64,000 nt of DNA from a phage: sequence record PV467749.1; one strand, 5' to 3'. The position numbers and the translations under genes were made by a program. Below are positions 8,190 through 31,986 of the stretch, piece by piece (positions within the stretch are counted from its first letter, which is position 1; each line of letters begins with the position of its first letter). A model generated the notes under the pieces. That model was not told the origin of the DNA. It was given only the letters and a program-made list of their open reading frames with translations, and did no database searches.

Positions 8190-9299
8190 ATGTTACCTTT
8201 TGTAAGACTATTTGATTATGGGAATATTACCTCTGGTCCTAAAAATATAATTAAAGTTGGTGCTTCTACTCAAGGTCAATTCGTATTGACTGATTCACAT
8301 GAATTGTATTACATAGGCAGAAATCAAGGTGGTGAATCTGGAAATGGTAATAAAAACACGGTATCTTCTTGGACATTAGTAAGTGCAGATGTTTCTAATT
8401 TTTTCACTGGAGGACGAACACTTGTTATTATTAAAAATGACAATACGATATGGACATCAGGTGAAACATTTTGGTTCACATCATCATCAACAACTTCTTA
8501 CAGTACTACATTAGTTGATAGAACGGAGTGGTTTACAAATACAATTCCTGTGAATCAAATTGCTAATATTGTATGCAATGGTGGTGTAATATTTGTACTC
8601 AGTTCAAGTTCAGTACTCTATGGTGCTGGGGCTAATGGATACCGTGGTGTATTGGGGATTGGTTCTTCATCAATATATACATTAACACTATGTGCTTCTA
8701 ATGTGCGTAAAGTTATGTCTACTCCTAATGATAGTATGTATATTAGCATAGATAATAAGTTATATAGTTCAGGGTGGAATGACCGTGGATTACATGGCAC
8801 AGGGAACAGAACACAAGTTAACATTTGGGGACTGCGTAGTTCTGGTGTAATAGATGCAGCTATTGGTGGACATACACTCAATTACTATAATGGTACATCA
8901 TATTTCACATGTGGTACAACTCCAAACTTTCTTAGTTCAGATTCAACTACATTCAAAGCAGTTCCTGTAAGTACTTTACCTAATAATTCACCTTTGTTTA
9001 TGACAAATTCAGAGGCAACAAGCACGGCTACGCAAATTATATTAACTAGTGCATATCAGAAAGGTATTGGGGGAAACCGTGGTTTGGGATTAAACAATTC
9101 TCAAACGGGTGCTATCTATAGTGCTGCTAATTTACAATTACCTGTAGAAGTTAGTGAGATTAGTGATGTTGCTTTTAGTGACGGATTAACATCATTATTA
9201 ACCAAAGACGGGAATGTATATAGTACTGGATCGTATTACGCCATTCCAGGTGCAAGTGCAGATGTTGCAGTCTTTACTAAAATTGATTTACCAAAATAA
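8190..9299 (+). CDS. RCC1-like beta-propeller repeat protein, array paralog 8 (N-term MLPFVRLFDYGN)
   Basis: ATG at 8190 follows AGGAGGAATT. The region 8169-8189 overlaps the end of paralog 7. Motifs: LYYIGRNQGGESGNGN, LYGAGANGYRGVLGIGS, LYSSGWNDRGLHGTGN. Confidence 0.85.
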   Translation: MLPFVRLFDYGNITSGPKNIIKVGASTQGQFVLTDSHELYYIGRNQGGESGNGNKNTVSSWTLVSADVSNFFTGGRTLVIIKNDNTIWTSGETFWFTSSSTTSYSTTLVDRTEWFTNTIPVNQIANIVCNGGVIFVLSSSSVLYGAGANGYRGVLGIGSSSIYTLTLCASNVRKVMSTPNDSMYISIDNKLYSSGWNDRGLHGTGNRTQVNIWGLRSSGVIDAAIGGHTLNYYNGTSYFTCGTTPNFLSSDSTTFKAVPVSTLPNNSPLFMTNSEATSTATQIILTSAYQKGIGGNRGLGLNNSQTGAIYSAANLQLPVEVSEISDVAFSDGLTSLLTKDGNVYSTGSYYAIPGASADVAVFTKIDLPK

Positions 9300-9369
9300 C
9301 ATAATGCCAGTACAGAGTACTGGCTTTTCTTTTTGGTTAAATATAGTATAATGAATAAAGGAGGGAATT
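9300..9369 (+). promoter_or_regulatory. Array cassette junction: hairpin terminator (gccagtacagagtactggc) + T-tract + conserved promoter block + SD
   Basis: Conserved cassette sequence. Confidence 0.8.
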
Positions 9370-18861: not shown

Positions 18862-19233
18862 TTATAACATACGTTTTTTACGAATAGTATTGTGGATATT
18901 TTTTAAGTAGTTCACACCTTTACACAACCCATAAAATACACCAGCACATACACCAAATGCAGGTATCATACATGCAAACATCGTTATCAATTCCCACATC
19001 TCCATGCCATCTTGATTCGGTCCAAGGTCAAAGATAACAACCGAAACCAAACCTGTGATACTTAGCATATAATATGCCATGAAGATAATAAAAGAAACAA
19101 TACCAACATCAGAGCGAACTGAATTTAGCATATTATATACTGGGGTTACACAGAAGTAATACAATAACCAAATCAAAGAACCTAAACTAAACACAATAAT
19201 AGTAATGATCGAAAATATTTCACGATAACTCAT
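18862..19233 (-). CDS. Small polytopic membrane protein, family A paralog 1
   Basis: 123 aa with 3-4 hydrophobic helices and a basic C-terminus (RKKRML). It is one of 7 contiguous paralogs with overlapping or abutting starts and stops. Confidence 0.7.
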   Translation of the reverse strand: MSYREIFSIITIIVFSLGSLIWLLYYFCVTPVYNMLNSVRSDVGIVSFIIFMAYYMLSITGLVSVVIFDLGPNQDGMEMWELITMFACMIPAFGVCAGVFYGLCKGVNYLKNIHNTIRKKRML

Positions 19234-19234
19234 T

Positions 19235-19597
19235 TTAGTTCCTCTTACCTAAACGCTCATGGATTTCGGAAATCTTATTATACATCCATGCCAGCAACTC
19301 AACGGATGCACAGAGAATAACCACACACAGTGTTAGTGAACATACCATAATACCAAATGTTATAAAATTCGAACTCGATGTTAATAATGCAACCAGCATT
19401 AGAATAAAACCAAAATTGAATGCTGTACTCAACACAGTATATGCTGGACTATATCTCCTTTGTATTACATCATATATATTTGATAATGGTCGCTTATGGA
19501 AGTACTTCCCAATGCACACGAATGCATTCAGTGAGAAGATAAATGTATACGCCATTACCATTAATTGACCAATAAAAGATAATTCAATATTATTCAT
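19235..19597 (-). CDS. Small polytopic membrane protein, family A paralog 2
   Basis: 120 aa with TM helices. SD GAGGA. Confidence 0.7.
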   Translation of the reverse strand: MNNIELSFIGQLMVMAYTFIFSLNAFVCIGKYFHKRPLSNIYDVIQRRYSPAYTVLSTAFNFGFILMLVALLTSSSNFITFGIMVCSLTLCVVILCASVELLAWMYNKISEIHERLGKRN

Positions 19598-19598
19598 G

Positions 19599-19970
19599 TT
19601 ATCCTCGTTTGCGGTATTTGATGCTTTGGTGCATTCTCTGAAAATGTGGAACTAATACATATTGTACGGTTTGCCAAATTACCATCAGATTATGGACAGC
19701 ACCACCGAGTAGACCAAACACTACACAGATAATTGCCAGTACTGGATCACCATCTACCATACCCCATTTGAATATATGTAAAATCCATACAGTGATAAGT
19801 AGTAATAAACTAATCCAATACGTAGTAAAAAATCCTGCATGTAATTCATAGTCATCAGCAATTTCATCGTATACGGTTTCCAAGAAGGATACACAGAAGA
19901 ACTTGCCAATAATAATAATTGTACTAATAAACAACATAGCAGTTAATATAATAAGTGCAATTTCCATCAC
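19599..19970 (-). CDS. Small polytopic membrane protein, family A paralog 3
   Basis: 123 aa with TM helices. SD GAGGGA. Confidence 0.7.
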   Translation of the reverse strand: MMEIALIILTAMLFISTIIIIGKFFCVSFLETVYDEIADDYELHAGFFTTYWISLLLLITVWILHIFKWGMVDGDPVLAIICVVFGLLGGAVHNLMVIWQTVQYVLVPHFQRMHQSIKYRKRG

Positions 19971-20281
19971 ATCCCTCGTTTACGCTTTTGATTGCGTCTA
20001 AATTCGGTTAGCCCACGACTAATCGGTGGCATCAGACTACATAAAAAAATAACAGTTGTTGGTAATAACATGAAGTCAATCATTGCTGTATTAACAGGTG
20101 GATCACATACCAAATAATACAAACAAGTAATACTAATTATGGTTGACCCAATAAAAGGAATACAAAATTCTTTTATCTGTTTTTCAACATAATCAAACAT
20201 CTTCAATACAAATAAAAATCCAACCCAACACATAATAAAATAGAATGAATAAAGCGTGTAAATCAATGTTACGATATCCAT
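19967..20281 (-). CDS. Small polytopic membrane protein, family A paralog 4
   Basis: 104 aa with TM helices. 4-nt overlap with the neighbour. Confidence 0.7.
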   Translation of the reverse strand: MDIVTLIYTLYSFYFIMCWVGFLFVLKMFDYVEKQIKEFCIPFIGSTIISITCLYYLVCDPPVNTAMIDFMLLPTTVIFLCSLMPPISRGLTEFRRNQKRKRGM

Positions 20282-20619
20282 TAGTACCTCGCATCAGGAA
20301 CTTTAGCACGTAATTTATGAACGACTGGGAACAACAACAAACTTACATATGCAATAGTTGAACCCCAATAGAATACTAATATAATTGGTTCACCATTGGA
20401 ACGGAACCCTCTACTAATCATTGAGTAGTGAATAATAGGCATGAACATCGCCATACCAAACCATGCGTGTAATTTTAATTGCAGCATGTTATCAGAGATG
20501 AATACTGAAATTGGTCGTTTGAAGAACCACATCAGAAAGTAGAATCCAGCACTAAGGATATAGTACATAGTACTAACTTTCATATACCACGGCAGTAAGT
20601 GTAAAAAATATTCCATCAT
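20281..20619 (-). CDS. Small polytopic membrane protein, family A paralog 5
   Basis: 112 aa. C-terminal ...HKLRAKVPDARY. Confidence 0.7.
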   Translation of the reverse strand: MMEYFLHLLPWYMKVSTMYYILSAGFYFLMWFFKRPISVFISDNMLQLKLHAWFGMAMFMPIIHYSMISRGFRSNGEPIILVFYWGSTIAYVSLLLFPVVHKLRAKVPDARY

Positions 20620-20963
20620 TCCTCCGGTATCTTGTTTCGAAGTTCAATCATAACACAACAAAGTTTAATGGTCAAGTAAAAAACTACACATATCATACCC
20701 AATGTACCGTAAACTGCGGAGAATGCTGGCAGTACCTTTCCTGTGAGTGTTGCTACAATACATGCTATCAATGTTGATGCAAACAACGATTGATTAATGA
20801 AAGAATTCATAAAATCTTCACCATTACGCTTATAGAATTGTCGTTTAAAATACCATCCTAGAAACATAACTACCCAAAATGTTACATAACCTGTTAGAAT
20901 AATCCCTGCAATTGAATGTGCAACAGAACTACTCTTTAAAAACTCAAGATAAGATTCAAACAT
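20616..20963 (-). CDS. Small polytopic membrane protein, family A paralog 6
   Basis: 115 aa. C-terminal ...IELRNKIPEE. Confidence 0.7.
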   Translation of the reverse strand: MFESYLEFLKSSSVAHSIAGIILTGYVTFWVVMFLGWYFKRQFYKRNGEDFMNSFINQSLFASTLIACIVATLTGKVLPAFSAVYGTLGMICVVFYLTIKLCCVMIELRNKIPEE

Positions 20964-21301
20964 TAGAAGTCCCCACGAATTTTTGCTCTACCATTAATGA
21001 TGAGATTAAACAAGTATATCAGCACCCAAATTAGTAATCCAAGGAATACAATATATTGTGATATTGAGTTCAACTGTGGATTAGCACAATAAATTAAGTG
21101 TGCGATAAGACCAACAATTGCAAACATACCTTGGATAATAGTGAAAAGAAGTAGTGAAATGTTTCCATCTGGATACAGTTTGAAAACGATTTTCTTTTTA
21201 AAATACCATAGTACTACAACTAGTGCATGATAAAAGAAAAAACCAAACAGATAAATCAAAGTAATACTAAGCATTGTATCTGAATTAAAAAACTCAAGCA
21301 T
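20963..21301 (-). CDS. Small polytopic membrane protein, family A paralog 7
   Basis: 112 aa with TM helices. C-terminal ...GRAKIRGDF. Confidence 0.7.
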   Translation of the reverse strand: MLEFFNSDTMLSITLIYLFGFFFYHALVVVLWYFKKKIVFKLYPDGNISLLLFTIIQGMFAIVGLIAHLIYCANPQLNSISQYIVFLGLLIWVLIYLFNLIINGRAKIRGDF

Positions 21302-21368
21302 ATCGTATCTCCGGTGGTGAATATTAAGTTATAGTACTACACTATGGTAGTACTGTCAATACATGTAA

Positions 21369-22142
21369 TTAAATTTTCTCAAGGAACATGTTTTCTGCCA
21401 TTGACTCCCAATCATATGGAAATTTATTATACAGACCAGCGATCAGTACTGGCATACGCAGAGAAGGTGAACGCAGCTTTTCTTCGTTGTTCAGCATCCA
21501 GTTTAAGATAGCTTTACAACCATTTTTATTAACCCCATTGTTCTCAAGAATATTAGTCTTGTTCATGATGTTCTCAATGTGAATCATAACTTCTTCGTTA
21601 GTGAACAGTTGAAGATCAACAAAGATACTACGAGTAATCAGTGCATCAATGTGTGGTGCTAAACTGCTTTTACCTTTAGCAATCTGTGACAGGTTTTTGT
21701 TCGTCAGGAAGATTACCTTCCCACGGAATTCAAACTGCTTAGGAATACCCTGCTGTTCCAGGTACTTCCCAGAAGTTGCATAAGATACAACCCGCTTCTC
21801 TGAAGTATCCAGTACTGCTTTGAGCAAGTCAATGTTGGTTTCATCGCTGAAGATATCAACGTCATCAAGTAACAGTACTGAAGCGGCATGACGTGAACGA
21901 TACAGTGCTTCGTACAAACCCATAGTGGTTACTTTACCGCTGATCTTTTTGTAGTCGATTTCAAAGTTATCATCAGCTTTCTGTAAACGCTGGTCAACGT
22001 TGTAAGTTTTACCAACACCACCTTTACCAGATACAATCAGGGAATTGATTGAATTAGCTTGGGTATCAAGTAAACATTCCAAAGCTGCCATCATGCTGTT
22101 GAAGTTCTTTTCGATTTGGATTGCTTTCTCTGTACGGGTCAT
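21369..22142 (-). CDS. P-loop NTPase (Walker A SGKGGVGKT, Walker B VLLLDDVD)
   Basis: 257-aa ORF. Deviant Walker A KGGxGKT as in ParA/MinD-type ATPases. A hhhhDD Walker B is present. SD GAGAGGA. It is preceded by the promoter/terminator module at 22150-22205. Confidence 0.75.
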   Translation of the reverse strand: MTRTEKAIQIEKNFNSMMAALECLLDTQANSINSLIVSGKGGVGKTYNVDQRLQKADDNFEIDYKKISGKVTTMGLYEALYRSRHAASVLLLDDVDIFSDETNIDLLKAVLDTSEKRVVSYATSGKYLEQQGIPKQFEFRGKVIFLTNKNLSQIAKGKSSLAPHIDALITRSIFVDLQLFTNEEVMIHIENIMNKTNILENNGVNKNGCKAILNWMLNNEEKLRSPSLRMPVLIAGLYNKFPYDWESMAENMFLEKI

Positions 22143-22184
22143 GTATTCATCCTCTCGTCTTGATGAAATAATTATAGCAAAAAG

Positions 22185-22204
22185 GGCTGACCGAAGTCAA
22201 CCCT
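22185..22204 (-). terminator. UUCG-tetraloop hairpin terminator (GGGUUGACUUCGGUCAGCCC on minus strand) fused to extended -10 promoter (attata at 22172-22177 = TATAAT on minus)
   Basis: gggctgaccgaagtcaaccc is flanked by A5 and T6. The minus-strand reading GGGTTGACTtcggtcagccctttttGCTATAAT gives TTGACT-18-TGcTATAAT. Confidence 0.75.
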
Positions 22205-22610
22205 TTTTTCTTTCAATCAAACATAGTCTACCAGAATGTACCATGCGATGGTGATTAGAACAAAGAATCATACACTTTCGAATTTCATCTTTGATAGCAT
22301 CTCGACTTTTACTGAACATAGAACTTGGTGTATGTTCTTTGGTATTAGGGTCAAGATGGTGAAAGTCTAAACATTCTGGATACTTCATCATACAAACACT
22401 ACAACCATAAAATGATTTAACTCTGGTCATGAAATCTTTATTTTTTCTTTTGATTTCTTCAAGTTTTTTGACATCAGTTTTTTTATTTCTGGTTTTCTTA
22501 CTGGTAATATTACTACAACCTTTGCATGTATTTCTATGTTTCCCAGTATCACTTCTTATACCAAATTCACTAATGTCTTTTTCAATATTACACGTGATAC
22601 ACTTCTTCAT
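22197..22610 (-). CDS. HNH endonuclease
   Basis: 137 aa with Cys clusters (CITCN, CKGC, CSVC) and the HNH motif HHLDPNTKEH...CSNHHRMVH. Confidence 0.75.
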   Translation of the reverse strand: MKKCITCNIEKDISEFGIRSDTGKHRNTCKGCSNITSKKTRNKKTDVKKLEEIKRKNKDFMTRVKSFYGCSVCMMKYPECLDFHHLDPNTKEHTPSSMFSKSRDAIKDEIRKCMILCSNHHRMVHSGRLCLIERKKG

Positions 22611-22912
22611 TGTTTAATCCATTTATTCAACAATGCACCCAACTTCACAATCTCATACCCATCCAGATAGCCATAGGAACACTCAGGTGTTTCATAAGTT
22701 GAACCATCATGGATACCTTGGCATTGGCTTTTGGAACGTTCAAGCAATCGTTGCAGTACTGATACGTCATCAAGAACGTAATACAAGTTAGCATATGGGT
22801 CCGTCACAATACAGTACTTAAACATACCAAATGTATCAATCGATTTTTCAACCTTAGCAAATTGTTTCTTTTCTTTATTATACAGTGCGTACATATTAAT
22901 CTCCACAATCAA
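22607..22912 (-). CDS. Hypothetical protein
   Basis: 101-aa ORF in the colinear minus-strand block. 4-nt overlap with the downstream gene. Confidence 0.55.
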   Translation of the reverse strand: MIVEINMYALYNKEKKQFAKVEKSIDTFGMFKYCIVTDPYANLYYVLDDVSVLQRLLERSKSQCQGIHDGSTYETPECSYGYLDGYEIVKLGALLNKWIKQ

Positions 22913-23267
22913 GTTTAACTAACTTACCACCCAGATACCCAAAGTTTTCTGGCTTCGCATCTGAATAGAAGAAGTCAGTACTCAACTCTGAATCCAATGC
23001 TAAAGCACACAACTCCACCCAAAATAAACCCCTATGTTGTACTGGCTTACAACGTTTCTGTACAGTTACTAGTCCAGTACATGATGACCACAACGTAGGG
23101 CAGATACCACTATCACTACGCTTGGAGTACTGCATCCAAGAACGTTCATTGAGGTTAGCTATCATCCCTGTTAAGAATAGCTTCCAACTTTTAAAGGTTG
23201 GAATCTTGATAGCATATTCCCCAATGAGTATGACAGTTCGGGTTGCACCTTTCAAATCTATATTCAT
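22896..23267 (-). CDS. Hypothetical protein
   Basis: 123-aa ORF in the colinear minus-strand block. Confidence 0.55.
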   Translation of the reverse strand: MNIDLKGATRTVILIGEYAIKIPTFKSWKLFLTGMIANLNERSWMQYSKRSDSGICPTLWSSCTGLVTVQKRCKPVQHRGLFWVELCALALDSELSTDFFYSDAKPENFGYLGGKLVKLDCGD

Positions 23268-23276
23268 ATTTTTTAA

Positions 23277-23528
23277 TTAGAAGAACACAAACCAAGTCCA
23301 GAATAAATTCCACACTACAAATAAAGACATAGTGGTTTTATGTACAATATCAGCAGTACTGGTCCATCCTCCACCGTGTCCTATTCCATTTATGAATAGA
23401 ACTAAGAACAAGATACCATTTACTACAATAGTACATAGTAAGTACACAAACACATTCCATGCAAGTTCAGGGGATACTAACGTAAATGGTAAAACAATTA
23501 GTAGTATTAGAACTAATAAAATTTTCAT
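23277..23528 (-). CDS. Small membrane protein
   Basis: 83 aa with two long hydrophobic segments. Confidence 0.55.
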   Translation of the reverse strand: MKILLVLILLIVLPFTLVSPELAWNVFVYLLCTIVVNGILFLVLFINGIGHGGGWTSTADIVHKTTMSLFVVWNLFWTWFVFF

Positions 23529-23556
23529 TTATCGCCTCACTTAATTAACGTGACAA

Positions 23557-23733
23557 TTAGTACGAATCAGATTCCCAGTACTCGATTGCTTCTTTCAGCA
23601 ATTCTTTAGCACGTTGTTTTGCAATGCGAGCGGGTAACAGATATGTGTACATTAACTGACGCTTCACTTCATTCAGTGAAAGCTGTTCATGGTACAGTGC
23701 ATCCATCAGTCGATTACGAGTACGTAGTTTCAT
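23557..23733 (-). CDS. Hypothetical small protein (58 aa, below ORF-track cutoff)
   Basis: Manual translation reads MKLRTRNRLMDALYHEQLSLNEVKRQLMYTYLLPARIAKQRAKELLKEAIEYWESDSY. It fills the gap between neighbours. Confidence 0.45.
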   Translation of the reverse strand: MKLRTRNRLMDALYHEQLSLNEVKRQLMYTYLLPARIAKQRAKELLKEAIEYWESDSY

Positions 23734-23744
23734 ATAAGTTATCC

Positions 23745-24347
23745 TTATTTCAAAGAATCATAGTAAGCAGTGTCAAAGATTGGAGTCATAATAACATAGT
23801 CAATACGGTCAATGTAAGTTGAACTCCACATTTCTGGTTTGTCATAAAATTGACGCTCGCGTTCATTCATACGAGTCAGTACTTCTTCCAATTTACTACG
23901 TGAAGCCATCAATGTATTACGCGATCCATAAGTGAAGTACTCAGTCCATTGATATTCATATTCAGTACTGATAGATTGAATAGTACCATCTTTGAAATGA
24001 GCTAAGGCATATCCTTTCTCTACAAAGTTATCAGGTGGAAGAACACTATCTGGATTAGTTTTCAATGCTTTGGTTAACTTTTCTTTAATTTCAGTTAACG
24101 TGCATACTGAACGAATGTTCTTCAGGTTTGATACTTGAAAATCACTGTACTTTCCAAAGAAAAATACACGCCAATCTTTAGGTTCATTATCAGATACGGT
24201 AATATTCGGATGATGGGCGAGTAAACGAAGAAGGCCAGCTTTGTGACCGTTAATGTAGATCTCATGGATGTGGTTAGCAGTTTTCTTAAAAGTAATCATG
24301 ACAATTCCTCGATTGTGGGATGAGAAGTTCATCCCCTTGATAAACAT
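23745..24347 (-). CDS. Hypothetical protein
   Basis: 200-aa ORF with no recognisable motif. Confidence 0.6.
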   Translation of the reverse strand: MFIKGMNFSSHNRGIVMITFKKTANHIHEIYINGHKAGLLRLLAHHPNITVSDNEPKDWRVFFFGKYSDFQVSNLKNIRSVCTLTEIKEKLTKALKTNPDSVLPPDNFVEKGYALAHFKDGTIQSISTEYEYQWTEYFTYGSRNTLMASRSKLEEVLTRMNERERQFYDKPEMWSSTYIDRIDYVIMTPIFDTAYYDSLK

Positions 24348-24374
24348 TATACAGTACTGAATGAGTTTGTCAAC

Positions 24375-24755
24375 TCAAAATAAATTCATTTCATGTGCGT
24401 ATTGTGGTTCAAGATGCGATAAGTTTTTGAAGCTTTCTTTCAACTCAGCATCATCTACATACACCGTGCCTGGTACATTCCCCATAGTGAAACCTACCCA
24501 CACAGTCATGTCACCAGTCCCTAAGCGTGGCATTGATAGCGAACCATCAGGTGAAACATCAAACGCTACACTGAAGTCATCAGTAACAACGTCAGAACCA
24601 TTTTCGAGAATAATACATCCACTATCTTTAAGCTTCTGAATGTGGATAGCAGCCTCTACAGCACGTTTGAAGTTATAGTAAGACTCTTTATCCTCAAACA
24701 TTGATTGTTTAATCAGACGCTTGTTTAGCTCGGTTACTTTGTGCATTTGACGCAT
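24375..24755 (-). CDS. Hypothetical protein
   Basis: 126-aa ORF. Confidence 0.55.
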   Translation of the reverse strand: MRQMHKVTELNKRLIKQSMFEDKESYYNFKRAVEAAIHIQKLKDSGCIILENGSDVVTDDFSVAFDVSPDGSLSMPRLGTGDMTVWVGFTMGNVPGTVYVDDAELKESFKNLSHLEPQYAHEMNLF

Positions 24756-25012
24756 TACTTATCCATCTCCCACAGTTGTAGAATTTCATAAGAGCCTGGT
24801 GGTGCTGGATTCCTGATCTCAGGGAATTGAGTACTTTTAGGATTTCCACCAGCATTAAATTCGTCAAGTAATGATTCCAGTTCGCGACGATCCTGAACAA
24901 CATAAACACAATCACCTGAACCTTCTTCGAGAATCATTTCACTTCCTGCACAATCCCATACTGTTGAGATACATAGAATCTCTTTTGTATTTTTATTACG
25001 CAATGCAAACAT
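24755..25012 (-). CDS. Hypothetical protein
   Basis: 85-aa ORF abutting the upstream gene. Confidence 0.5.
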   Translation of the reverse strand: MFALRNKNTKEILCISTVWDCAGSEMILEEGSGDCVYVVQDRRELESLLDEFNAGGNPKSTQFPEIRNPAPPGSYEILQLWEMDK

Positions 25013-25020
25013 AGCACCCC

Positions 25021-25389
25021 CTATCGATTTGGCATTTTATCTCGTAATCTAATGAGATAATCAACCACAGACCATGTTGAAATGAAAGTGATATAAGTAC
25101 CGAAGAATCCTACCAGAATAAAGGCAACAAGTGTACTCCCATTTGGATCTTCAGCTTTAATACCGATGATACCATCAAATACAGTGAAAAATGTAGACAT
25201 ACACGTTAAACAGATGTACATCACCAATAAGAATTCATGTTTCAATGATGGATATAAACGGTCAAAGAGTTTATAAAATTTAAAGTACAGTAGGAGTATA
25301 CCAACAAAGACATAGAAAGTAAACAGTGTTGTTATGATATATGATATTAAATTTAAATTATACATCTCAACGCTCCGGTAGATTATCAC
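25021..25389 (-). CDS. Small polytopic membrane protein, family A paralog 8
   Basis: 122 aa with TM helices. C-terminal ...LIRLRDKMPNR. Confidence 0.7.
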   Translation of the reverse strand: MIIYRSVEMYNLNLISYIITTLFTFYVFVGILLLYFKFYKLFDRLYPSLKHEFLLVMYICLTCMSTFFTVFDGIIGIKAEDPNGSTLVAFILVGFFGTYITFISTWSVVDYLIRLRDKMPNR

Positions 25390-25714
25390 GTAATGTTTTG
25401 ATTCGATTATACAATTTCATTGCTACATTTCCAAATAAACCAAAACCCATTACTAAAATGTATGCGATGATCATAGTAATAATTACAATAGTACCTAGAC
25501 TGTAATGTACTGCACTGATACCCATTATTGTTTCTACAATGATGTGAGCAACAGAAATAATCAAAAGTACTACTACAATTGGATGATTTGGATACATTCG
25601 GTTAAACAATGTTTTGTACTTAAAGAAGTACAGTACTCCACCAAATAAGAAGTACACAATGTAGATTGATGCAACTGCATAAGCAAACGCATTAGTGTAA
25701 AAAATCATTATCAA
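25367..25714 (-). CDS. Small polytopic membrane protein, family A paralog 9
   Basis: 115 aa. C-terminal ...IKTLRDNLPER. Confidence 0.7.
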   Translation of the reverse strand: MIMIFYTNAFAYAVASIYIVYFLFGGVLYFFKYKTLFNRMYPNHPIVVVLLIISVAHIIVETIMGISAVHYSLGTIVIITMIIAYILVMGFGLFGNVAMKLYNRIKTLRDNLPER

Positions 25715-25717
25715 TCC

Positions 25718-26056
25718 TTACTTTTCAGGGATTTTATTACGCCACTCATCGATGCGATGAAGCAGTTTAAAGAGCAAAAATATCGGAACAGTAGCTATCA
25801 TAGTAGCAATTGTTAGTAATGTCAACACCGATACGAGATTTAATTCGTCAGTACTATATCCACATACCAGTGCTTCAATTATCCCCCACGTACATACACT
25901 GAACATCAAAAATGAAATTGGTGCATCGTAGTATATGCGTTGATACAAGGTCGTGTATCGGAAGAATGCAATAATGTAACAAAACATGTAATACACCCAA
26001 ATTAACGATACTACATAAAATGATACCTTATTAATTAATTCAAAATGATGTTCCAT
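25718..26056 (-). CDS. Small polytopic membrane protein, family A paralog 10
   Basis: 112 aa. C-terminal ...IDEWRNKIPEK. Confidence 0.7.
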   Translation of the reverse strand: MEHHFELINKVSFYVVSLIWVYYMFCYIIAFFRYTTLYQRIYYDAPISFLMFSVCTWGIIEALVCGYSTDELNLVSVLTLLTIATMIATVPIFLLFKLLHRIDEWRNKIPEK

Positions 26057-26065
26057 TTTTACCCC

Positions 26066-26368
26066 CTACATATATTCTAAGAATAATGTATTAGCTTCGT
26101 CTATGTTCTTAAGATAATACATGTAATACAGATTTGGTTGTCCGTCTTTTGAACTCAAATCAAAGTACTTTAAACTATGCACCTTCATGACAAAAACAAA
26201 TAATGACTTAAAACCAATCTCACCGTACTTAATAAACAGTTCATCTAAATGAATGTAACTCTTAGTTTCAGATAATTCCTTCACATCATCTTCAATTTCT
26301 TGTAAGCGAAGTTTACCGATTAAGTTTTCAAATGAACGCATGATGTTGTTCCTTATGCTGGTACACAA
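26066..26368 (-). CDS. Hypothetical protein
   Basis: 100-aa ORF. Confidence 0.5.
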   Translation of the reverse strand: MCTSIRNNIMRSFENLIGKLRLQEIEDDVKELSETKSYIHLDELFIKYGEIGFKSLFVFVMKVHSLKYFDLSSKDGQPNLYYMYYLKNIDEANTLFLEYM

Positions 26369-26766
26369 TTTTTTATAATGAATACACGTTTCATGAATGA
26401 ACTTTCATATACGTACTTCAGTTTACCATTTTCACGCATACGATGAAACACATCTTTACCGCTAGTACTCCATGTTGAACCAGTCTCTGCATCAACATTG
26501 TTCATTACACCAGATGTTACATTCACCCCGTACTTGAAGCTAAAGGTACTACCTTCTTCTACTAGAGGGATTGGTGTACTACGTTCATGTTCCAGTACAA
26601 GTTTACTGCCGATGATGTTGTACGAAGTTAGCTTGCATTTTAAAACACCCATCTCTTGTGCAGTTGGGTAATTCTTCTCAAATAAATCAGATACTTCATT
26701 TGCATAACAAACTGAACTAATCATAAGAAGTAATGAACTGATAGAACGGAAAATAACTTTTAACAT
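26353..26766 (-). CDS. Secreted protein (N-terminal signal peptide)
   Basis: 137 aa. N-terminus MLKVIFRSISSLLLMISSVCYA/NEV is signal-peptide-like. Confidence 0.6.
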   Translation of the reverse strand: MLKVIFRSISSLLLMISSVCYANEVSDLFEKNYPTAQEMGVLKCKLTSYNIIGSKLVLEHERSTPIPLVEEGSTFSFKYGVNVTSGVMNNVDAETGSTWSTSGKDVFHRMRENGKLKYVYESSFMKRVFIIKNCVPA

Positions 26767-26805
26767 GTTTGCCTCCAGTAGTTGATGAAATGATTATAGC
26801 AAAAA

Positions 26806-26825
26806 GGGCCGACCGAAGTCAACCC
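26806..26825 (-). terminator. UUCG-hairpin terminator/promoter module (copy 2)
   Basis: gttgatgaaatgattatagcaaaaagggccgaccgaagtcaaccc tttt. It is near-identical to the element at 22160-22205. Confidence 0.75.
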
Positions 26826-26832
26826 TTTTCTT

Positions 26833-27207
26833 TTATATTTTACATGTCATGTCTGGTTTTGGCTTTTCATTCTTTGGCTTTTCAAATGGATTTGGCTTAG
26901 GGGACTTTTTATCTTTGTCATCTTTAGCTTTCTTTTTGTTTTCTTTTTTATCCGATTTGTCAGCTTTGTCTTTCTTATCTTTTGAATCTTTGTCAGCTTT
27001 AGATTGTGGTTCCTCACATACAGCAGTTTTTGGCTCCGGCATATCACATGAGTTATCCACTGGTTTAATGAACTCTTTACAGTTGTAGAAGTATAAACTT
27101 TCATTGGTAGTAAGATTGTGGAATCTAAAGGTATTTTCACCATTAGTATATACTTTCTTAGTACTCTCAATATCATTACACATTGCAACTGTGTCACCGG
27201 AATTCAT
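26833..27207 (-). CDS. Hypothetical protein with Lys/Asp-rich low-complexity C-terminus
   Basis: 124 aa. C-terminal KADKDSKDKKDKADKSDKKENKKKAKDDKDKK. Confidence 0.55.
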   Translation of the reverse strand: MNSGDTVAMCNDIESTKKVYTNGENTFRFHNLTTNESLYFYNCKEFIKPVDNSCDMPEPKTAVCEEPQSKADKDSKDKKDKADKSDKKENKKKAKDDKDKKSPKPNPFEKPKNEKPKPDMTCKI

Positions 27208-27445
27208 GCTCGATACCTATTACATCCGACTTACGTTCAGATAGTATTCCAGACGTATATCGATCTTTGTTATCAAATGCATTGAACCCTATAGTTTTAT
27301 TATTGTCATGTACCAATCCTCTAGTGTAAGACTTGGTATAGAACTCACCGTTTCTAAACTCCTGTCTAGCAATGGAGCACTGGTATTCAGTACTATAAAC
27401 TATATCAGTAAACAATACAAGTGAAAATAAAACATATTTAAACAT
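27194..27445 (-). CDS. Small secreted protein
   Basis: 83 aa with N-terminal hydrophobic signal MFKYVLFSLVLFTDIVYS. Confidence 0.55.
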   Translation of the reverse strand: MFKYVLFSLVLFTDIVYSTEYQCSIARQEFRNGEFYTKSYTRGLVHDNNKTIGFNAFDNKDRYTSGILSERKSDVIGIEHEFR

Positions 27446-27487
27446 TGCATTACCTCTTATAAAACCCTCTACAATATTTACAAAAAA

Positions 27488-27507
27488 AGGTTGACCGAAG
27501 TCAACCT
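27488..27507. terminator. Perfect palindromic hairpin terminator AGGTTGACCGAAGTCAACCT (copy 3, bidirectional)
   Basis: Perfect 8-bp stem with a CGAA/UUCG loop, flanked by A7 and T4. Confidence 0.75.
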
Positions 27508-27516
27508 TTTAAATGT

Positions 27517-29028
27517 TTATTTTTTATCCTTTCCAACACCACGGTCGTACTCTTTGAATGAGTTATCAAGTGTAGTTAGTGCATACTCATATGCTTCTGG
27601 TGATTCAATGTCAACATCATCTGCACCATTTACTAAATCAGCCCAAGCCTTTTGAAGTTTACGAGCATTGTTACCAACATTATCTTTAATCCAACTAATA
27701 TTTTTGTTGATACTTTTACTATCAGCACCTGCTTTTTTACCAATCTCGGATATCCACATCATTAACTTTTGAAGTTCATGAATTGATTTATCAGTCATTT
27801 CAAGATGTTCTTCTTCCATACCGTCAGAATCAGATGAACCAACGTCAATTCCATGTTTAGCTAATAGTTTACCAAGTTCAAAGAATGCAGCTTCAGCAGG
27901 GAAGTCATAACCTTTGTCTTTGTAGTTATTCCATGCACTATCAAACTCGTCAACAAAACGGTTAGCATAATCTGGATTTTTAACTAATGCTTTATATACT
28001 GCCATTGCATGTTCAAAACCTTCTTTATCTGACCCAAACTCTTCCATCTCAGGACGATGAATATATCCATCCATATCAACGGTATCAGGTAGATCTTCTT
28101 GTTCAGGTTCTACATCTTTCTGTTCAACTGCACCTTCTTCATCTGCACGCTTTAGATAACCATCTGGTGTTACCTTCTCACCATGTTCTGCTTCATACTT
28201 TTTCATAGTGTTGAATGCAGCATCCATAGCTGTTACGAAGCGACTTTTCTCACCTTGTACATAAGATTTAAGTGCACTGTTAACTGCATCTGATACGAGC
28301 TTAACCTTATCGTCTTTACCTTCTAAACGGTTTTCAAGTTTAGCCAGTACATTCTTGATTTGCTGGGCATTAGCACGGTCTGCTTTACCAATACTATCAA
28401 AAGTTTTAAGAATACCATCAAGACTTGCTTCACCCTGTTCAGGTTCTTTCGAATCTTCTTTGTGTGTACCTTCAAGTGCACGCATGATAGTACTGAATAC
28501 TTCAGTGGGTTCAGTACTCTTATTACCTTTCATTGCATCAAGTACAGCTTGTGCTTTACCTTTGAGTTCTTCTTTAGGAACTGCCTGTAGTGCTTTGACA
28601 ATACCCTGAATCAACTGTGGTTTGTTAGCAAAGATCTTACCTAAGTTATCAGATAACTCTTTAACAGGGTTAGCTGCTTTAGGAGCTTCTGGTTTTGGTT
28701 CTTCTTTAGGAACTGCTTGTTCTTTCTCAGCACGTTCCATATCAGCAAGGCGTTGTTTCTGTGTTGCGTTAAGAAGACCTAATGAGTTAACATAACGTAG
28801 CTTTTCTAGCTCAGTCATGTTCTCAGTACTCTTAACTTCACCTGCTTCTGCGTTTGCCTTACCAGCTAAACCTGTCCCTTGATTACGTGAACCACGTGAC
28901 CCCTGTCCTGCTTGGTAGCTATTTTGACGACGATTGCGTTCACTCCATTTATCAGAGTGACCTGCCATGTTCCCGCCATTTTTATCAGTAAATTGACCTG
29001 GCATTTGATTTCTCTCCATAGATTTCAT
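27517..29028 (-). CDS. Large highly charged hypothetical protein (503 aa)
   Basis: Long ORF. It is Lys/Glu-rich and helix-like. The N-terminal region LEKLRYVNSLGLLNATQKQRL resembles KYLDSLGLLKPDQS of 29861..30259. Confidence 0.7.
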   Translation of the reverse strand: MKSMERNQMPGQFTDKNGGNMAGHSDKWSERNRRQNSYQAGQGSRGSRNQGTGLAGKANAEAGEVKSTENMTELEKLRYVNSLGLLNATQKQRLADMERAEKEQAVPKEEPKPEAPKAANPVKELSDNLGKIFANKPQLIQGIVKALQAVPKEELKGKAQAVLDAMKGNKSTEPTEVFSTIMRALEGTHKEDSKEPEQGEASLDGILKTFDSIGKADRANAQQIKNVLAKLENRLEGKDDKVKLVSDAVNSALKSYVQGEKSRFVTAMDAAFNTMKKYEAEHGEKVTPDGYLKRADEEGAVEQKDVEPEQEDLPDTVDMDGYIHRPEMEEFGSDKEGFEHAMAVYKALVKNPDYANRFVDEFDSAWNNYKDKGYDFPAEAAFFELGKLLAKHGIDVGSSDSDGMEEEHLEMTDKSIHELQKLMMWISEIGKKAGADSKSINKNISWIKDNVGNNARKLQKAWADLVNGADDVDIESPEAYEYALTTLDNSFKEYDRGVGKDKK

Positions 29029-29069
29029 ATTGTTTATTCTCTATGACTATATTTATAGTATAAAGAAAA

Positions 29070-29109: not shown

Positions 29110-29436
29110 TTAGTAGTTACAGTCAGCTTTCGCTGTGAATGTTTTACTTTCACCTCGTTGTGTGGTGATTCGTCCGAGTAAAGTAGTTTTGTCAATAGTC
29201 ATTGTAGTTAGTACTGGAACATTACCTTCAAAGTCAATAGCTTTGAAATTGTAGGTGGTTTCATTCTCCACTACACTTGGACCAAAGAGTTCATATGTGT
29301 TGATTTCAAGTGTGTCACCATCTGAACGCAACAGTGTGCAGTCCAGATTAGGAGTAGCCAGTACTGGGAAAGCCAAACACATCATCATTACAATAATTAA
29401 TTTCATTTCACTTCTCCTGTTTTTTCTTAGGATCAA
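29110..29436 (-). CDS. Secreted protein (signal peptide)
   Basis: 108 aa. N-terminus MKLIIVMMMCLAFPVLATPNLDC. Confidence 0.6.
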   Translation of the reverse strand: MILRKNRRSEMKLIIVMMMCLAFPVLATPNLDCTLLRSDGDTLEINTYELFGPSVVENETTYNFKAIDFEGNVPVLTTMTIDKTTLLGRITTQRGESKTFTAKADCNY

Positions 29437-29665
29437 CCAATGACCAAATGAAGAATCCGAGAATTACAAGTACCCACAGAATCATGATAAAGAAAGCAAA
29501 CAGTACAATAGTATTTGTCAAAAAGAAATACAATAGAATGTTCGACCCAATACTACATACAATCAATGCAGCTTCATGTTTAACAACACGAATGGCTGTA
29601 ATGAGTGCGGGAAGAAATCCGACAAATAACAGTACTAATGCATATAGTGATAATGTTTCAGCCAT
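29408..29665 (-). CDS. Small membrane protein
   Basis: 85 aa with 2-3 TM helices and C-terminal KKKQEK. Confidence 0.55.
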   Translation of the reverse strand: MAETLSLYALVLLFVGFLPALITAIRVVKHEAALIVCSIGSNILLYFFLTNTIVLFAFFIMILWVLVILGFFIWSLVDPKKKQEK

Positions 29666-30259: not shown

Positions 30260-30370
30260 TTCATACTCCTTAAAGAGATAAATTACTTTAATATTTATAC
30301 TTCATGTGCTGTTTATTTCAACAGACACTTAAGATTATATCACATATGAAATGGTTGTTCCAACGTCAAA

Positions 30371-31454: not shown

Positions 31455-31691
31455 TTATTTTTTAATAGATTCATAAAGCAGAAACAACCAAATAAACATT
31501 GATGAACAAACTACTACTGGGATTAATGTAAATTCAGTAAAGAATAAAAGTATTCCATAAGTTAGTATGCAACATAAGTTTACGTACATAATTGCTTCTG
31601 CATTTTTATTTTTCATTTTATATGCAATGAATGTTGGTGACCACATTACCAAAAATGCAAACAACGCACATATGATGATTATAGTTTCCAT
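31455..31691 (-). CDS. Small membrane protein
   Basis: 78 aa with 3 hydrophobic helices. Confidence 0.55.
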   Translation of the reverse strand: METIIIICALFAFLVMWSPTFIAYKMKNKNAEAIMYVNLCCILTYGILLFFTEFTLIPVVVCSSMFIWLFLLYESIKK

Positions 31692-31761: not shown

Positions 31762-31986
31762 TCAATTTTTAGTCACTTTACAATTTGAATCTTTTTTGTA
31801 CTGAACAATCACATTGTTCTTAAGGAAGATGATGGTCCCATAGGAACCTTGGGCTGCAACTTCAACAATATGGTTCTTATATGTTTCAGTATACCCTTCC
31901 ATCTCGTTGATACACACTACATGATACTTTGGTTTAGCACATACAACAGTACTCAAGAATAGCAGTACTAGTACTAGATATTTCAT
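31762..31986 (-). CDS. Small secreted protein
   Basis: 74 aa. Signal peptide MKYLVLVLLFLSTVVCA. Confidence 0.55.
   Translation of the reverse strand: MKYLVLVLLFLSTVVCAKPKYHVVCINEMEGYTETYKNHIVEVAAQGSYGTIIFLKNNVIVQYKKDSNCKVTKN

Follow-up and report, generated by a model that had tools for sequence, protein, structure and literature searches.

The locus described here raises the question of whether ten short minus-strand ORFs, arranged in two tandem clusters in a jumbo phage of the 121Q/PBECO4 type (Asteriusvirus) infecting E. coli, encode one family of membrane proteins, and what such a family could do for the phage. The ten ORFs were recovered at the coordinates originally predicted, with products of 104 to 123 aa (Table 1), and an HMM scan of the window, i.e. 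the whole 64-kb stretch of DNA analysed, found no eleventh member. They are real, constrained genes, since dN/dS lies between 0.10 and 0.58 in nearly all orthologue comparisons. Three starts called for a choice. The ORF m3 can also be read from a GTG at 19970 (span 19599-19970 in the ORF list), while the TTG start at 25714 given for m9 in the mechanical ORF list (25367-25714) and the GTG start at 25389 for m8 (25021-25389) appear unlikely; the database homologues of m8 have 114 aa, in line with the ATG at 25365.

Table 1. Genes of the two arrays, their neighbours and associated transcription signals, with the residues following TM1 and the C-terminal tails of the array proteins
Feature	Position	Strand	After TM1	Tail	Remarks
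m10	25718..26056	-	AFFRYT	WRNKIPEK	First gene of cluster A; core type; 112 aa
m9	25367..25708	-	YFFKYK	LRDNLPER	Cluster A; core type; 113 aa from ATG
m8	25021..25365	-	LYFKFYK	LRDKMPNR	Cluster A; core type; 114 aa from ATG
m7	20963..21301	-	WYFKKK	GRAKIRGDF (Pro-less variant)	First gene of cluster B; core type; 112 aa; 3 TM
m6	20616..20963	-	WYFKRQ	LRNKIPEE	Cluster B; core type; 115 aa; 3 TM
m5	20281..20619	-	WFFKRP	LRAKVPDARY	Cluster B; core type; 112 aa
m4	19967..20281	-		...FRRNQKRKRGM	Cluster B; divergent single-copy subtype; 104 aa; 3 TM
m3	19599..19967	-	IGKFFCV	...MHQSIKYRKRG	Cluster B; m1-3 subtype; 122 aa from ATG
m2	19235..19597	-	GKYFHKRP	...IHERLGKRN	Cluster B; m1-3 subtype; 120 aa
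m1	18862..19233	-	LLYYFCVTP	...IHNTIRKKRML	Last gene of cluster B; m1-3 subtype; 123 aa
P-loop NTPase	21369..22142	-			257 aa; T4 NrdC.10 homologue (phrog_1250, no function assigned); upstream neighbour of m7
RCC1-like gene	17701-18825	+			Convergent to m1
Sigma-70-type promoter	21331..21359	-			TTGACA-17-TACTAT; in the 67-nt gap upstream of m7
Sigma-70-type promoter	26793..26822	-			TTGACT-18-TATAAT; intergenic; 11/12, extended -10 TG
Hairpin terminator	18830..18856	.			Bidirectional, 12-bp stem; between m1 and the RCC1-like gene

Cluster B forms one compact unit, with a promoter, coupled stops and starts, and a bidirectional terminator. The promoter upstream of m7 is conserved in six of seven Asteriusvirus loci, and its spacer contains the inverted repeat GTACTAC-N5-GTAGTAC. 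Within the cluster the genes are separated by -1, -4, -1, -4, +1 and +1 nt, and the Shine-Dalgarno site of the next gene lies inside the tail codons of the preceding one; the final codons of m6, CCG GAG GAA TGA, thus hold this site and overlap the start of m5. The overlapping stops and starts and the translational coupling originally proposed for both clusters therefore hold for cluster B. They do not extend to cluster A, where the gaps are 9 and 1 nt when computed with the ATG starts used by the database homologues (m9 from 25708, m8 from 25365). The promoter at 26793..26822 could drive 26766, g206 and then m10–m8. On the minus strand from 18.8 to 27.5 kb, four sigma-70 matches reach at least 11/12 and three of these are located in short intergenic gaps, but the total of promoter-like sites does not exceed chance (52, with 56.6 expected). 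The T4-type late promoter TATAAATA occurs less often than chance predicts (3 matches, with 11.5 expected) and precedes neither array. Early expression of cluster B is plausible, to judge from the promoter consensus, because the conserved upstream promoter is of the sigma-70 type and no T4-type late promoter accompanies it.

In each protein an N-terminal helix is followed by three TM helices and, at the C-terminus, by a basic helix. The hydropathy and the K/R distribution gave three TM helices per protein rather than up to four as had been supposed, although in m5 they appear only with a lowered hydropathy threshold. The positive-inside analysis predicted an N-out/C-in orientation for all ten, and in the record of Klebsiella phage Muenster the annotators' TMHMM calls read '3 TMDs, N-out, C-in' for five of eight homologues. 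The AF2 model of m6 (pLDDT 79.9) has helices at residues 2-11, 13-38, 42-53, 55-73 and 81-110.

At its cytoplasmic end TM1 carries an aromatic-aromatic-F-K/R motif, complete in m5–m10 and degenerate in m1–m4 (YYFCV, KYFHKRP, KFFCV and KMFDY). As for the C-terminal motif, the tails quoted in the original prediction are correct, but R-x-[KN]-[IVLM]-P occurs in five of the ten proteins only (m5, m6, m8, m9 and m10). This type of tail, in its fuller form [LIW]-R-x-[KN]-[IL]-P-[EDN], defines a core subfamily and not the whole superfamily, since m7 lacks the proline and the m1–m4 branch carries a separate basic tail, [FIM]-[HR]-x-x-[IL]...K-R. Two residues, both predicted to be cytoplasmic, are invariant across 101 core sequences, namely F in the W-F-F-K-R that follows TM1 and R in L-R-x-K-I-P, whereas TM2, loop 2 and TM3 are poorly conserved. 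The conserved chassis is made up of the N-terminal helix, TM1, W-[FY]-F-K-[RK] and the tail L-R-x-K-I-P-[ED], which in the m1–m4 branch is replaced by that branch's own tail. The L-R-x-K-I-P tail recurs in metagenomic relatives at less than 25% identity, and by this sequence evidence it is a true family signature.

The ten ORFs might be unrelated hydrophobic proteins, or even non-coding, and alike only in their TM composition. Most pairwise BLAST E-values among them exceed 0.01, kinship being visible only for m8, m9 and m10 and weakly for m6 and m7, and PHROGs divides the proteins into eight or more families. Profile–profile comparison leads elsewhere. Scores in hhalign of 31 to 83 join m5–m10 (49.5 for m5–m6) and scores of 34 to 41 join m1–m3 (40.8 for m2–m3), well above a null that preserves topology and composition, in which columns were permuted within each TM or loop segment (1,125 trials; mean 13.5, maximum 30.2). 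The merged m1-3 profile matched the 101-sequence core profile with a probability of 93.9% and a score of 44.6, with 105 columns in register. For m4 the score was 26.6 against the core profile (null maximum 24.7) and 31.7 against the m1-3 profile, and m4-type proteins of distant phages match the m4, m1-3-type and core HMMs, so acting as bridging sequences between the subfamilies. With these results, the two invariant residues at fixed positions, dN/dS below 1 and orthologues in many phages, mere likeness of composition is extremely unlikely, and for m1–m3 and m5–m10 unrelatedness is refuted. The predicted relatedness beyond hydrophobicity thus holds at the profile level: the comparisons argue strongly for one superfamily as far as m5–m10 and m1–m3 are concerned, and with moderate confidence for m4, the weakest link of the ten.

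Database searches gave the proteins no name. None of the ten matched Pfam, even at E up to 1, and there was no match in NCBIfam, PADLOC or the structure libraries; the sequence and fold searches likewise linked the proteins to no characterised protein, Imm and Sie included. PHROG membership was counted for nine of the ten proteins (E 1e-46 to 1e-61), the families being 19285, 19046, 19454, 27396, 33258, 26405 and 27618, without function, and 16874 ('membrane protein'); m8 matched weakly (4e-4) and m2 had no clear family. These families are kept separate and unannotated in PHROGs, whereas here they are joined by motifs, topology and conserved gene order. The array proteins match no described protein family. 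We define a RaK2/121Q-like 3-TM array family, with a length of 100–125 aa, an N-terminal helix, three TM helices and the motif at the end of TM1, all of which are found in m5–m10.

The order of subtypes, from core types through m4 and m3/m2 to m1, is kept in Asteriusvirus, Alcyoneusvirus and uncultured jumbo-phage contigs, and the window shows it, as do 121Q, ph0011, UE-S1, JNE01, A4, Muenster, L007 and L010-L012. The orthologues are genes 207-209 and 224-232 in 121Q, and those of Muenster, a RaK2-like phage, were found with E-values of 7e-15 (m7), 1.7e-24 (m5) and 2.8e-36 (m1). In every lineage examined, the T4 NrdC.10-like NTPase gene lies directly upstream of the array. In the best explanation, the family is specific to RaK2/121Q-like jumbo phages. 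The copies are ancient, diverged paralogues in a fixed order across phage genera and not as a recent expansion, so the striking degree of amplification first suspected was not borne out. The number of copies does vary, however: cluster A has one, three or four genes depending on the phage, and some phages carry duplicates of m7 and m4 while others lack them. In the 121Q record m4 is frameshifted within a T-run, which could be a sequencing error, and m6 of Salmonella phage SD-2_S15 has an in-frame deletion of 147 nt. The block around the arrays contains many other genes for small membrane and signal-peptide proteins, and in one relative a nearby gene is annotated as 'immunity to superinfection'.

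The arrays are also far more divergent than their surroundings. Compared with JNE01/A4, the array proteins are 25–65% identical and the products of the genes between the clusters 93–100%; the NTPase is 99% identical to that of JNE01, and m7–m5 only 31–54%. Values of dS differ about 10-fold between neighbouring array genes, which indicates recombination breakpoints inside the arrays, and a further breakpoint lies between the NTPase gene and m7. Since the high divergence is accompanied by high dS, it points to old alleles and recombination rather than to demonstrated positive selection. The pooled regional dN/dS was 0.40–0.51 for TM2 and 0.26–0.42 for TM3, against 0.10–0.26 for the N-terminus, TM1 and each of loops 1 and 2, and the TM2–TM3 hairpin is the fastest-evolving part; no hypervariability is seen in the periplasmic segments (omega about 0.17).

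We tentatively propose, with a probability of about 0.3, that the arrays encode early inner-membrane blockers serving exclusion and/or counter-defence. Host RNA polymerase would transcribe them early in infection, and the proteins would enter the inner membrane in roughly equal amounts. The common cytoplasm-facing chassis may provide insertion, orientation or a shared contact, while the divergent membrane-embedded TM2–TM3 surface of each copy would bind and block a different inner-membrane target. The slow-growing infected cell would then be protected at its membrane, with superinfecting phages excluded and/or membrane-acting host defences neutralised. Their mode of action would resemble that of T4 Imm and other Sie proteins, to which they are not homologous, and they would not be lysis proteins. 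Like Imm and the Sie proteins, the array proteins are small, polytopic and located in the inner membrane, and they come from a lytic myovirus related to T4; their genes occupy a non-structural accessory region, are probably read from early promoters of the host type and are individually dispensable. Imm has two TM helices and 83 aa, whereas the array proteins have three and are longer; there is no similarity in sequence or fold, nor did any of the ten match Pfam Imm_superinfect or a PHROG so annotated, and seven to ten ordered paralogues stand against a single gene. In favour of the blocker function we count the early-type promoter and the tight coupling of cluster B, the conserved cytoplasmic motifs beside a faster-evolving TM2–TM3 hairpin, the variation in copy number and the damaged m4 and m6 copies, which suggest an accessory, individually dispensable character, the divergence and mosaicism of the arrays, and the neighbouring small membrane genes with the nearby superinfection annotation. 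It is weakened by the negative homology and fold searches, by the chance-level total of promoter-like sites, by the high dS that accompanies the divergence, by the periplasmic face, for which a contest with incoming phage parts might predict hypervariability, and by the retention of every subtype in order across genera, which fits non-redundant subunits of a complex at least equally well.

Such a complex would be a hetero-oligomeric inner-membrane channel, scaffold or translocation device built by the phage, with the paralogues as distinct subunits, their ratios fixed by translational coupling and W-F-F-K and R-x-K-I-P as an inter-subunit or cytoplasmic docking face. The stop/start overlaps with ribosome-binding sites in tail codons, the purifying selection on all copies and the constant neighbourhood of the P-loop NTPase gene are in its favour, together with the conserved order in Asteriusvirus, Alcyoneusvirus and uncultured contigs. 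However, the inconstant copy number, the viable isolates with a frameshifted m4 or an internally deleted m6, and breakpoints that separate array genes from each other and from the NTPase gene speak against co-adapted subunits, and we consider it unlikely. Its more specific form, an early-assembled machine of 7–10 non-redundant three-helix subunits in fixed ratios, possibly with the NrdC.10-like NTPase, is quite unlikely; if true, it could be a membrane conduit or scaffold for handling a 350-kb genome, or serve to re-organise the envelope. Equally unlikely as the complex in general are host-takeover factors, each of which would inhibit or redirect some function of the host inner membrane (transport, respiration, division, membrane proteases such as FtsH, or Sec/YidC) to serve the phage's long replication cycle and would not be directed at competitors or defences. 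The membrane location and promoters of the early type would suit them, and the conserved cytoplasmic motifs could touch a conserved host factor; orthologues are kept between E. coli and Klebsiella phages, whose hosts have similar inner-membrane proteomes. On the other hand, some viable isolates have lost single copies or carry damaged ones, database searches gave no similarity to known host-takeover proteins, and high allelic divergence with mosaicism is more typical of conflict loci than of the targeting of conserved machinery.

A holin/antiholin system of RaK2-like phages, in which class-I-like holins would permeabilise the inner membrane, so releasing or activating a SAR-type endolysin, and paralogues would tune the timing of lysis, is very unlikely, although the proteins resemble the class I holins, of which lambda S105 is the archetype (with P22 gp13 of the same type), in having about 105–120 aa, three TMDs, the N-out/C-in orientation and a C-terminus that is short, cytoplasmic and highly charged. 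The usual partners of SAR endolysins are 2-TMD pinholins, however, and we know of no holin with W-F-F-K and R-x-K-I-P motifs, such as those of the array proteins, nor of a precedent for seven to ten ordered holin paralogues. In favour of a holin role, T4 holin T and antiholin RI have no homologues in RaK2 (PMC3622015), and 121Q gp532, predicted in silico and the only candidate endolysin published for the group, has an N-terminal TMD (PMC5259590). The arrays (121Q genes 207-232) are far from gp532, however, and no lysozyme gene was found among the flanking genes examined. No holin family in Pfam, NCBIfam or PHROG was matched, cluster B is preceded by a conserved promoter of the sigma-70 type and neither array by a T4-type late promoter, and the curators of Muenster, specialists in lysis, named the homologues only 'putative membrane protein'. 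The holin or antiholin role that had been suggested for the family is thus disfavoured. Of the other roles suggested, exclusion, immunity or a decoy function may apply.

In its genomic organization the locus recalls the hyperplastic accessory regions of T4-like genomes and the 'accordion' loci of tandem gene amplification, as a mosaic, recombination-prone block of small genes whose copy number differs between isolates. It differs from them in that its paralogues are ancient and subfunctionalised and keep their order from genus to genus, instead of being near-identical products of recent amplification.

The ten minus-strand ORFs m1-m10 were found exactly where they had been predicted, seven contiguous (cluster B) and three further upstream (cluster A). 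Genome comparison places the window among the ~350-kb jumbo myoviruses of the 121Q/PBECO4/phAPEC6 group (genus Asteriusvirus), and Escherichia phage WPEC3 presents 98.5% identity to this region. The GC content (~35%) is even throughout, and the GC-skew changes sign near 18 kb, where the leftward and rightward transcribed blocks meet.

Kyte-Doolittle analysis showed three transmembrane (TM) helices in each protein, which for m5 appear only below the usual hydropathy threshold; of the three to four helices in the original prediction, the fourth was not found. Lysine and arginine are abundant in loop 1 and the C-terminal tail of m1-m10 and nearly missing from the N-terminus and loop 2, which indicates an N-out/C-in topology. 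For the array homologues of Klebsiella phage Muenster, independent TMHMM notes by the curators read '3 TMDs; N-out, C-in' in five of eight genes. An AlphaFold2 model of m6 built from a 52-sequence alignment (pLDDT 79.9, pTM 0.61), used instead of an earlier mediocre one from 24 sequences (pLDDT 68), has helices at 2-11, 13-38, 42-53, 55-73 and 81-110; the predicted cytoplasmic helix extends TM3 and ends just before the tail Pro. The tail R-x-[KN]-[IVLM]-P, at first attributed to the family as a whole, is present in m5, m6, m8, m9 and m10, while m7 ends in RAKIRGDF and the tails of m1-m4 are basic and Pro-less. Database homologues indicate internal ATGs as the true starts of m8 and m9, not the listed GTG/TTG.

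Coordinates of the arrays and neighbouring features in the window
Feature	Position	Strand
Cluster B (m7 to m1)	18862-21301	-
Cluster A (m10 to m8)	25021-26056	-
m8 start	25365	-
m9 start	25708	-
Gap upstream of m7	21302-21368	
m7 promoter	21331-21359	-
Inverted repeat in spacer	21337-21353	-
Sigma-70-like match	22200	-
Sigma-70-like match	24373	-
Sigma-70-like match	26822	-
TATAAATA match	29050-29057	-
TATAAATA match	30292-30299	-
TATAAATA match	56159-56166	-
Terminator after m1	18830-18856	
Second terminator hairpin	16943-16968	
Terminator-like hairpin after 503-aa gene	27485-27510	
216-aa protein gene	16973-17623	
P-loop NTPase gene	21369-22142	-
HNH-like gene	22197-22610	
123-aa protein gene	22896-23267	-
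503-aa protein gene	27517-29028	
Small membrane protein gene	23277-23528	-
Small membrane protein gene	29408-29665	-
Small membrane protein gene	31455-31691	-
Signal-peptide protein gene	26353-26766	-
Signal-peptide protein gene	27194-27445	-
Signal-peptide protein gene	29110-29436	-
Signal-peptide protein gene	31762-31986	-

Pairwise BLAST among the ten proteins supported only m8/m9/m10 (E 1e-9 to 1e-12) and a weak m6-m7 link, and BLAST and phmmer within the ten were too weak to settle relatedness. Profiles of the ten orthologue groups, drawn from six Asteriusvirus genomes, were compared by hhalign against a null in which columns were shuffled inside each TM or loop segment, so that topology and composition were retained (mean 13.5, maximum 30.2 in 1,125 trials). 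Links over the null join the core type m5-m10 (m8-m9-m10 60-83, m5-m6 49.5, m7-m8 44, m6-m10 42, m6-m8 38, m6-m7 and m7-m10 31) and the m1-3 subtype (m2-m3 41, m1-m3 34). The merged m1-m3 profile aligned with a 101-sequence core profile over 105 columns in register (probability 93.9%, score 44.6), and the divergent m4 scored 26.6 against the core (null maximum 24.7) and 31.7 against m1-3. Bridging proteins occur in distant phages: m4-type proteins match the m4, m1-3 and core HMMs, and one m2-type protein matches those of m10 and m5. The claim of a paralogous family is thereby upheld, and we conclude from these sequence relationships that m1-m10 form a single superfamily, with m4 as the least secure member.

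Exactly two residues are invariant among the 101 core sequences, the second F in the motif W-[FY]-F-K-[RK], where TM1 reaches the cytoplasm, and the R in the L-R-x-K-I-P-[ED] tail; TM2, loop 2 and TM3 are poorly conserved. When the tail motif was sought in other phages, both motifs were found in metagenomic members at less than 25% identity (for example ...LWFFKRP... and ...LRSKIPNRWE). Of 5.8 billion proteins searched through a word index, only 37 clusters matched, and exhaustive HMMER over 1.84 billion representatives gave 37 at E <= 1e-3, all of 100-121 aa and matched at full length. No significant match or functional annotation for the ten proteins was obtained from Pfam, NCBIfam or PADLOC, PHROGs scatters them over several families of unknown function, and structure searches found no structural relative. 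The consulted papers on Sharanji, fEgEco12, UE-S1, phAPEC6, Muenster, CBB and RaK2 do not describe the family, nor do two jumbo-phage reviews. Some members (P0002, P0010) have database entries as hypothetical proteins of 'Escherichia coli', in one case from a ~348-kb contig; bacterial assemblies therefore include whole Asteriusvirus genomes, either from a carrier state or as contamination.

The degree of amplification had been called striking, but a recent expansion is ruled out by orthologues in the same order in other genera. The window order m7, m6, m5, m4, m3, m2, m1 corresponds in Muenster (RaK2-like, genus Alcyoneusvirus) to two m6-like genes, m7 (7e-15), m5 (2e-24), m4 (1e-21), m3 (4e-14) and m1 (3e-36). 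Among uncultured jumbo-phage contigs, L010 (324 kb) presents three core genes, m4, m3, m2, an ambiguous m4/m3-type copy and m1, with an m10-type gene ~5 kb upstream that mirrors cluster A, and L007 presents three core genes, m4, m2, m3 and two weak matches (m3-like, m2-like). In every lineage the array is directly preceded by a P-loop NTPase of ~255 aa, ~40% identical to T4 NrdC.10. Convergent RCC1/WD40-like genes close the array in Asteriusvirus and in the metagenomic relatives; in Muenster it is followed by genes for a putative outer-membrane lipoprotein and a ClpP-like protease (L014 10603-11840), and the counterpart position in Asteriusvirus holds a 216-aa protein of unknown function. Such an array is absent from T4, in which the genes downstream of nrdC.10 do not encode TM proteins and have no match to the family HMMs, and also after the NTPase of PA5oct, a relative with RNA-seq data.

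The 67 nt that separate m7 from the gene before it contain a promoter TTGACA-17-TACTAT, which is conserved at six of the seven related loci. Four sigma-70-like matches of at least 11/12 lie on the minus strand from 18.8 to 27.5 kb, three of them in short intergenic gaps, but the overall number of promoter-like sites is at chance level. The T4-type late promoter TATAAATA is strongly under-represented, with 3 matches where 11.5 would be expected, and none lies upstream of either array. We infer that the arrays are probably expressed early, since sigma-70-type signals are present and the late type is absent. The late match at 29050 lies just upstream of a 503-aa gene. In vB_Ec-M-J the equivalent of this gene carries a virion structural protein annotation, and in the window a palindromic terminator-like hairpin follows it. 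After m1 there is a bidirectional terminator with a 12-bp stem, which has the core CCAGTACT...AGTACTGG in common with a second terminator hairpin, and the m7-promoter spacer contains the inverted repeat GTACTAC-N5-GTAGTAC. These palindromes may be a recurring regulatory element, or an operator overlapping the promoter.

The proposed stop/start overlaps were seen in cluster B, in part as simple abutment (-1, -4, -1, -4, +1, +1 nt), and there the Shine-Dalgarno of each downstream gene sits within the last tail codons of the preceding one (m6 CCG GAG GAA TGA/ATG; m4 CGA GGG ATG TGA; m2 AAG AGG AAC TAA). The post-Pro residues and the K-R-G ends are therefore under a dual protein and ribosome-binding constraint, and this double role can account for what follows the Pro (E-E, A-R-Y, R-G, K-R-N). 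The R-x-K-I-P core as a Shine-Dalgarno by-product was rejected, since R, K and I precede the Shine-Dalgarno and m10 and m5 use non-Shine-Dalgarno codons for P-[ED].

Nearly all orthologue pairs presented dN/dS of 0.10-0.58. Pooled by region, values were lowest in the N-terminal helix, TM1, loop 1 and loop 2 (0.10-0.26) and highest in TM2 (0.40-0.51) and TM3 (0.26-0.42); an arms race on the periplasmic side was rejected, given an omega of ~0.17 for the periplasmic segments. Array genes of JNE01 and A4 are 25-65% identical to those of the window, against 93-100% for the genes between the clusters, and neighbouring array genes show ~ten-fold differences in dS, which indicates recombination breakpoints inside the arrays. 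The NTPase is 99% identical to that of JNE01 and only 59% to that of 121Q, while for m7-m5 the pattern is reversed (31-54% and 81-95%), and a breakpoint is therefore placed at the NTPase/array junction. Copy number also varies: cluster A has one, three or four copies depending on the phage, second copies of m7 and m4 occur in some phages, and in m6 of Salmonella phage SD-2_S15 an in-frame 147-nt deletion joins TM1 to TM3. In 121Q as deposited, m4 is frameshifted by +1 within a T-run, which may be a sequencing error.

The anatomy and evolution of the arrays are secure, whereas their function is not. We tentatively favour, at a probability of about 30%, that the proteins would be early inner-membrane blockers acting in exclusion or counter-defence, with a common cytoplasm-facing chassis and a membrane-embedded TM2-TM3 surface as the variable part of each. 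The fixed order and the retention of every subtype would also suit a hetero-oligomeric complex, which we consider somewhat less likely, and a general takeover of the host membrane is about as likely as the complex. A holin/antiholin role is unlikely: the topology is that of class I holins, and neither holin T nor antiholin RI of T4 has a homologue in RaK2 (PMC3622015), but the predicted endolysin of the group, the SAR-like enzyme 121Q gp532, is distant from the 121Q array genes 207-232 (PMC5259590), and the promoter data favour early expression.

Some ten 'hypothetical proteins' in each genome now constitute one defined superfamily, directly testable given its topology, two invariant residues to mutate, and conserved promoter and gene order. 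Jumbo phages of the RaK2/121Q group are under development for therapy, yet over 80% of their genes lack a known function. If the proposed blockers keep out other phages or neutralise membrane-acting defences, they would be relevant to phage-cocktail design and to how a slow, large phage keeps its infected cell. A complex would be a new type of viral membrane machine, and if the proteins were the missing holins, the mode of host lysis in the group would be settled.

The HNH-like gene directly abuts the NTPase in the window, and WPEC3 and vB_Ec-M-J have ~2.7-2.9 kb extra there, with denV (endonuclease V) and another HNH endonuclease among the additional genes; on comparison of window 22143-22610 with 8535-12663 of the related locus L013, the length difference is an indel associated with homing endonucleases. 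A T7-kinase-like gene lies upstream of cluster A in 121Q and metagenomic relatives and is absent there in the window phage. The window's 123-aa protein contains a D-A-K-P-E-N motif that resembles a protein-kinase catalytic loop, and aligns with positions 40-167 of phrog_4301 (225 positions; function unknown). Several further small membrane proteins, of 78-85 aa, are encoded in the leftward block of the arrays, as are signal-peptide proteins; none of these is related to the array family. The 85-aa protein has no PHROG match at 1e-3, and a nearby 87-aa gene in vB_Ec-M-J carries the annotation 'immunity to superinfection'.
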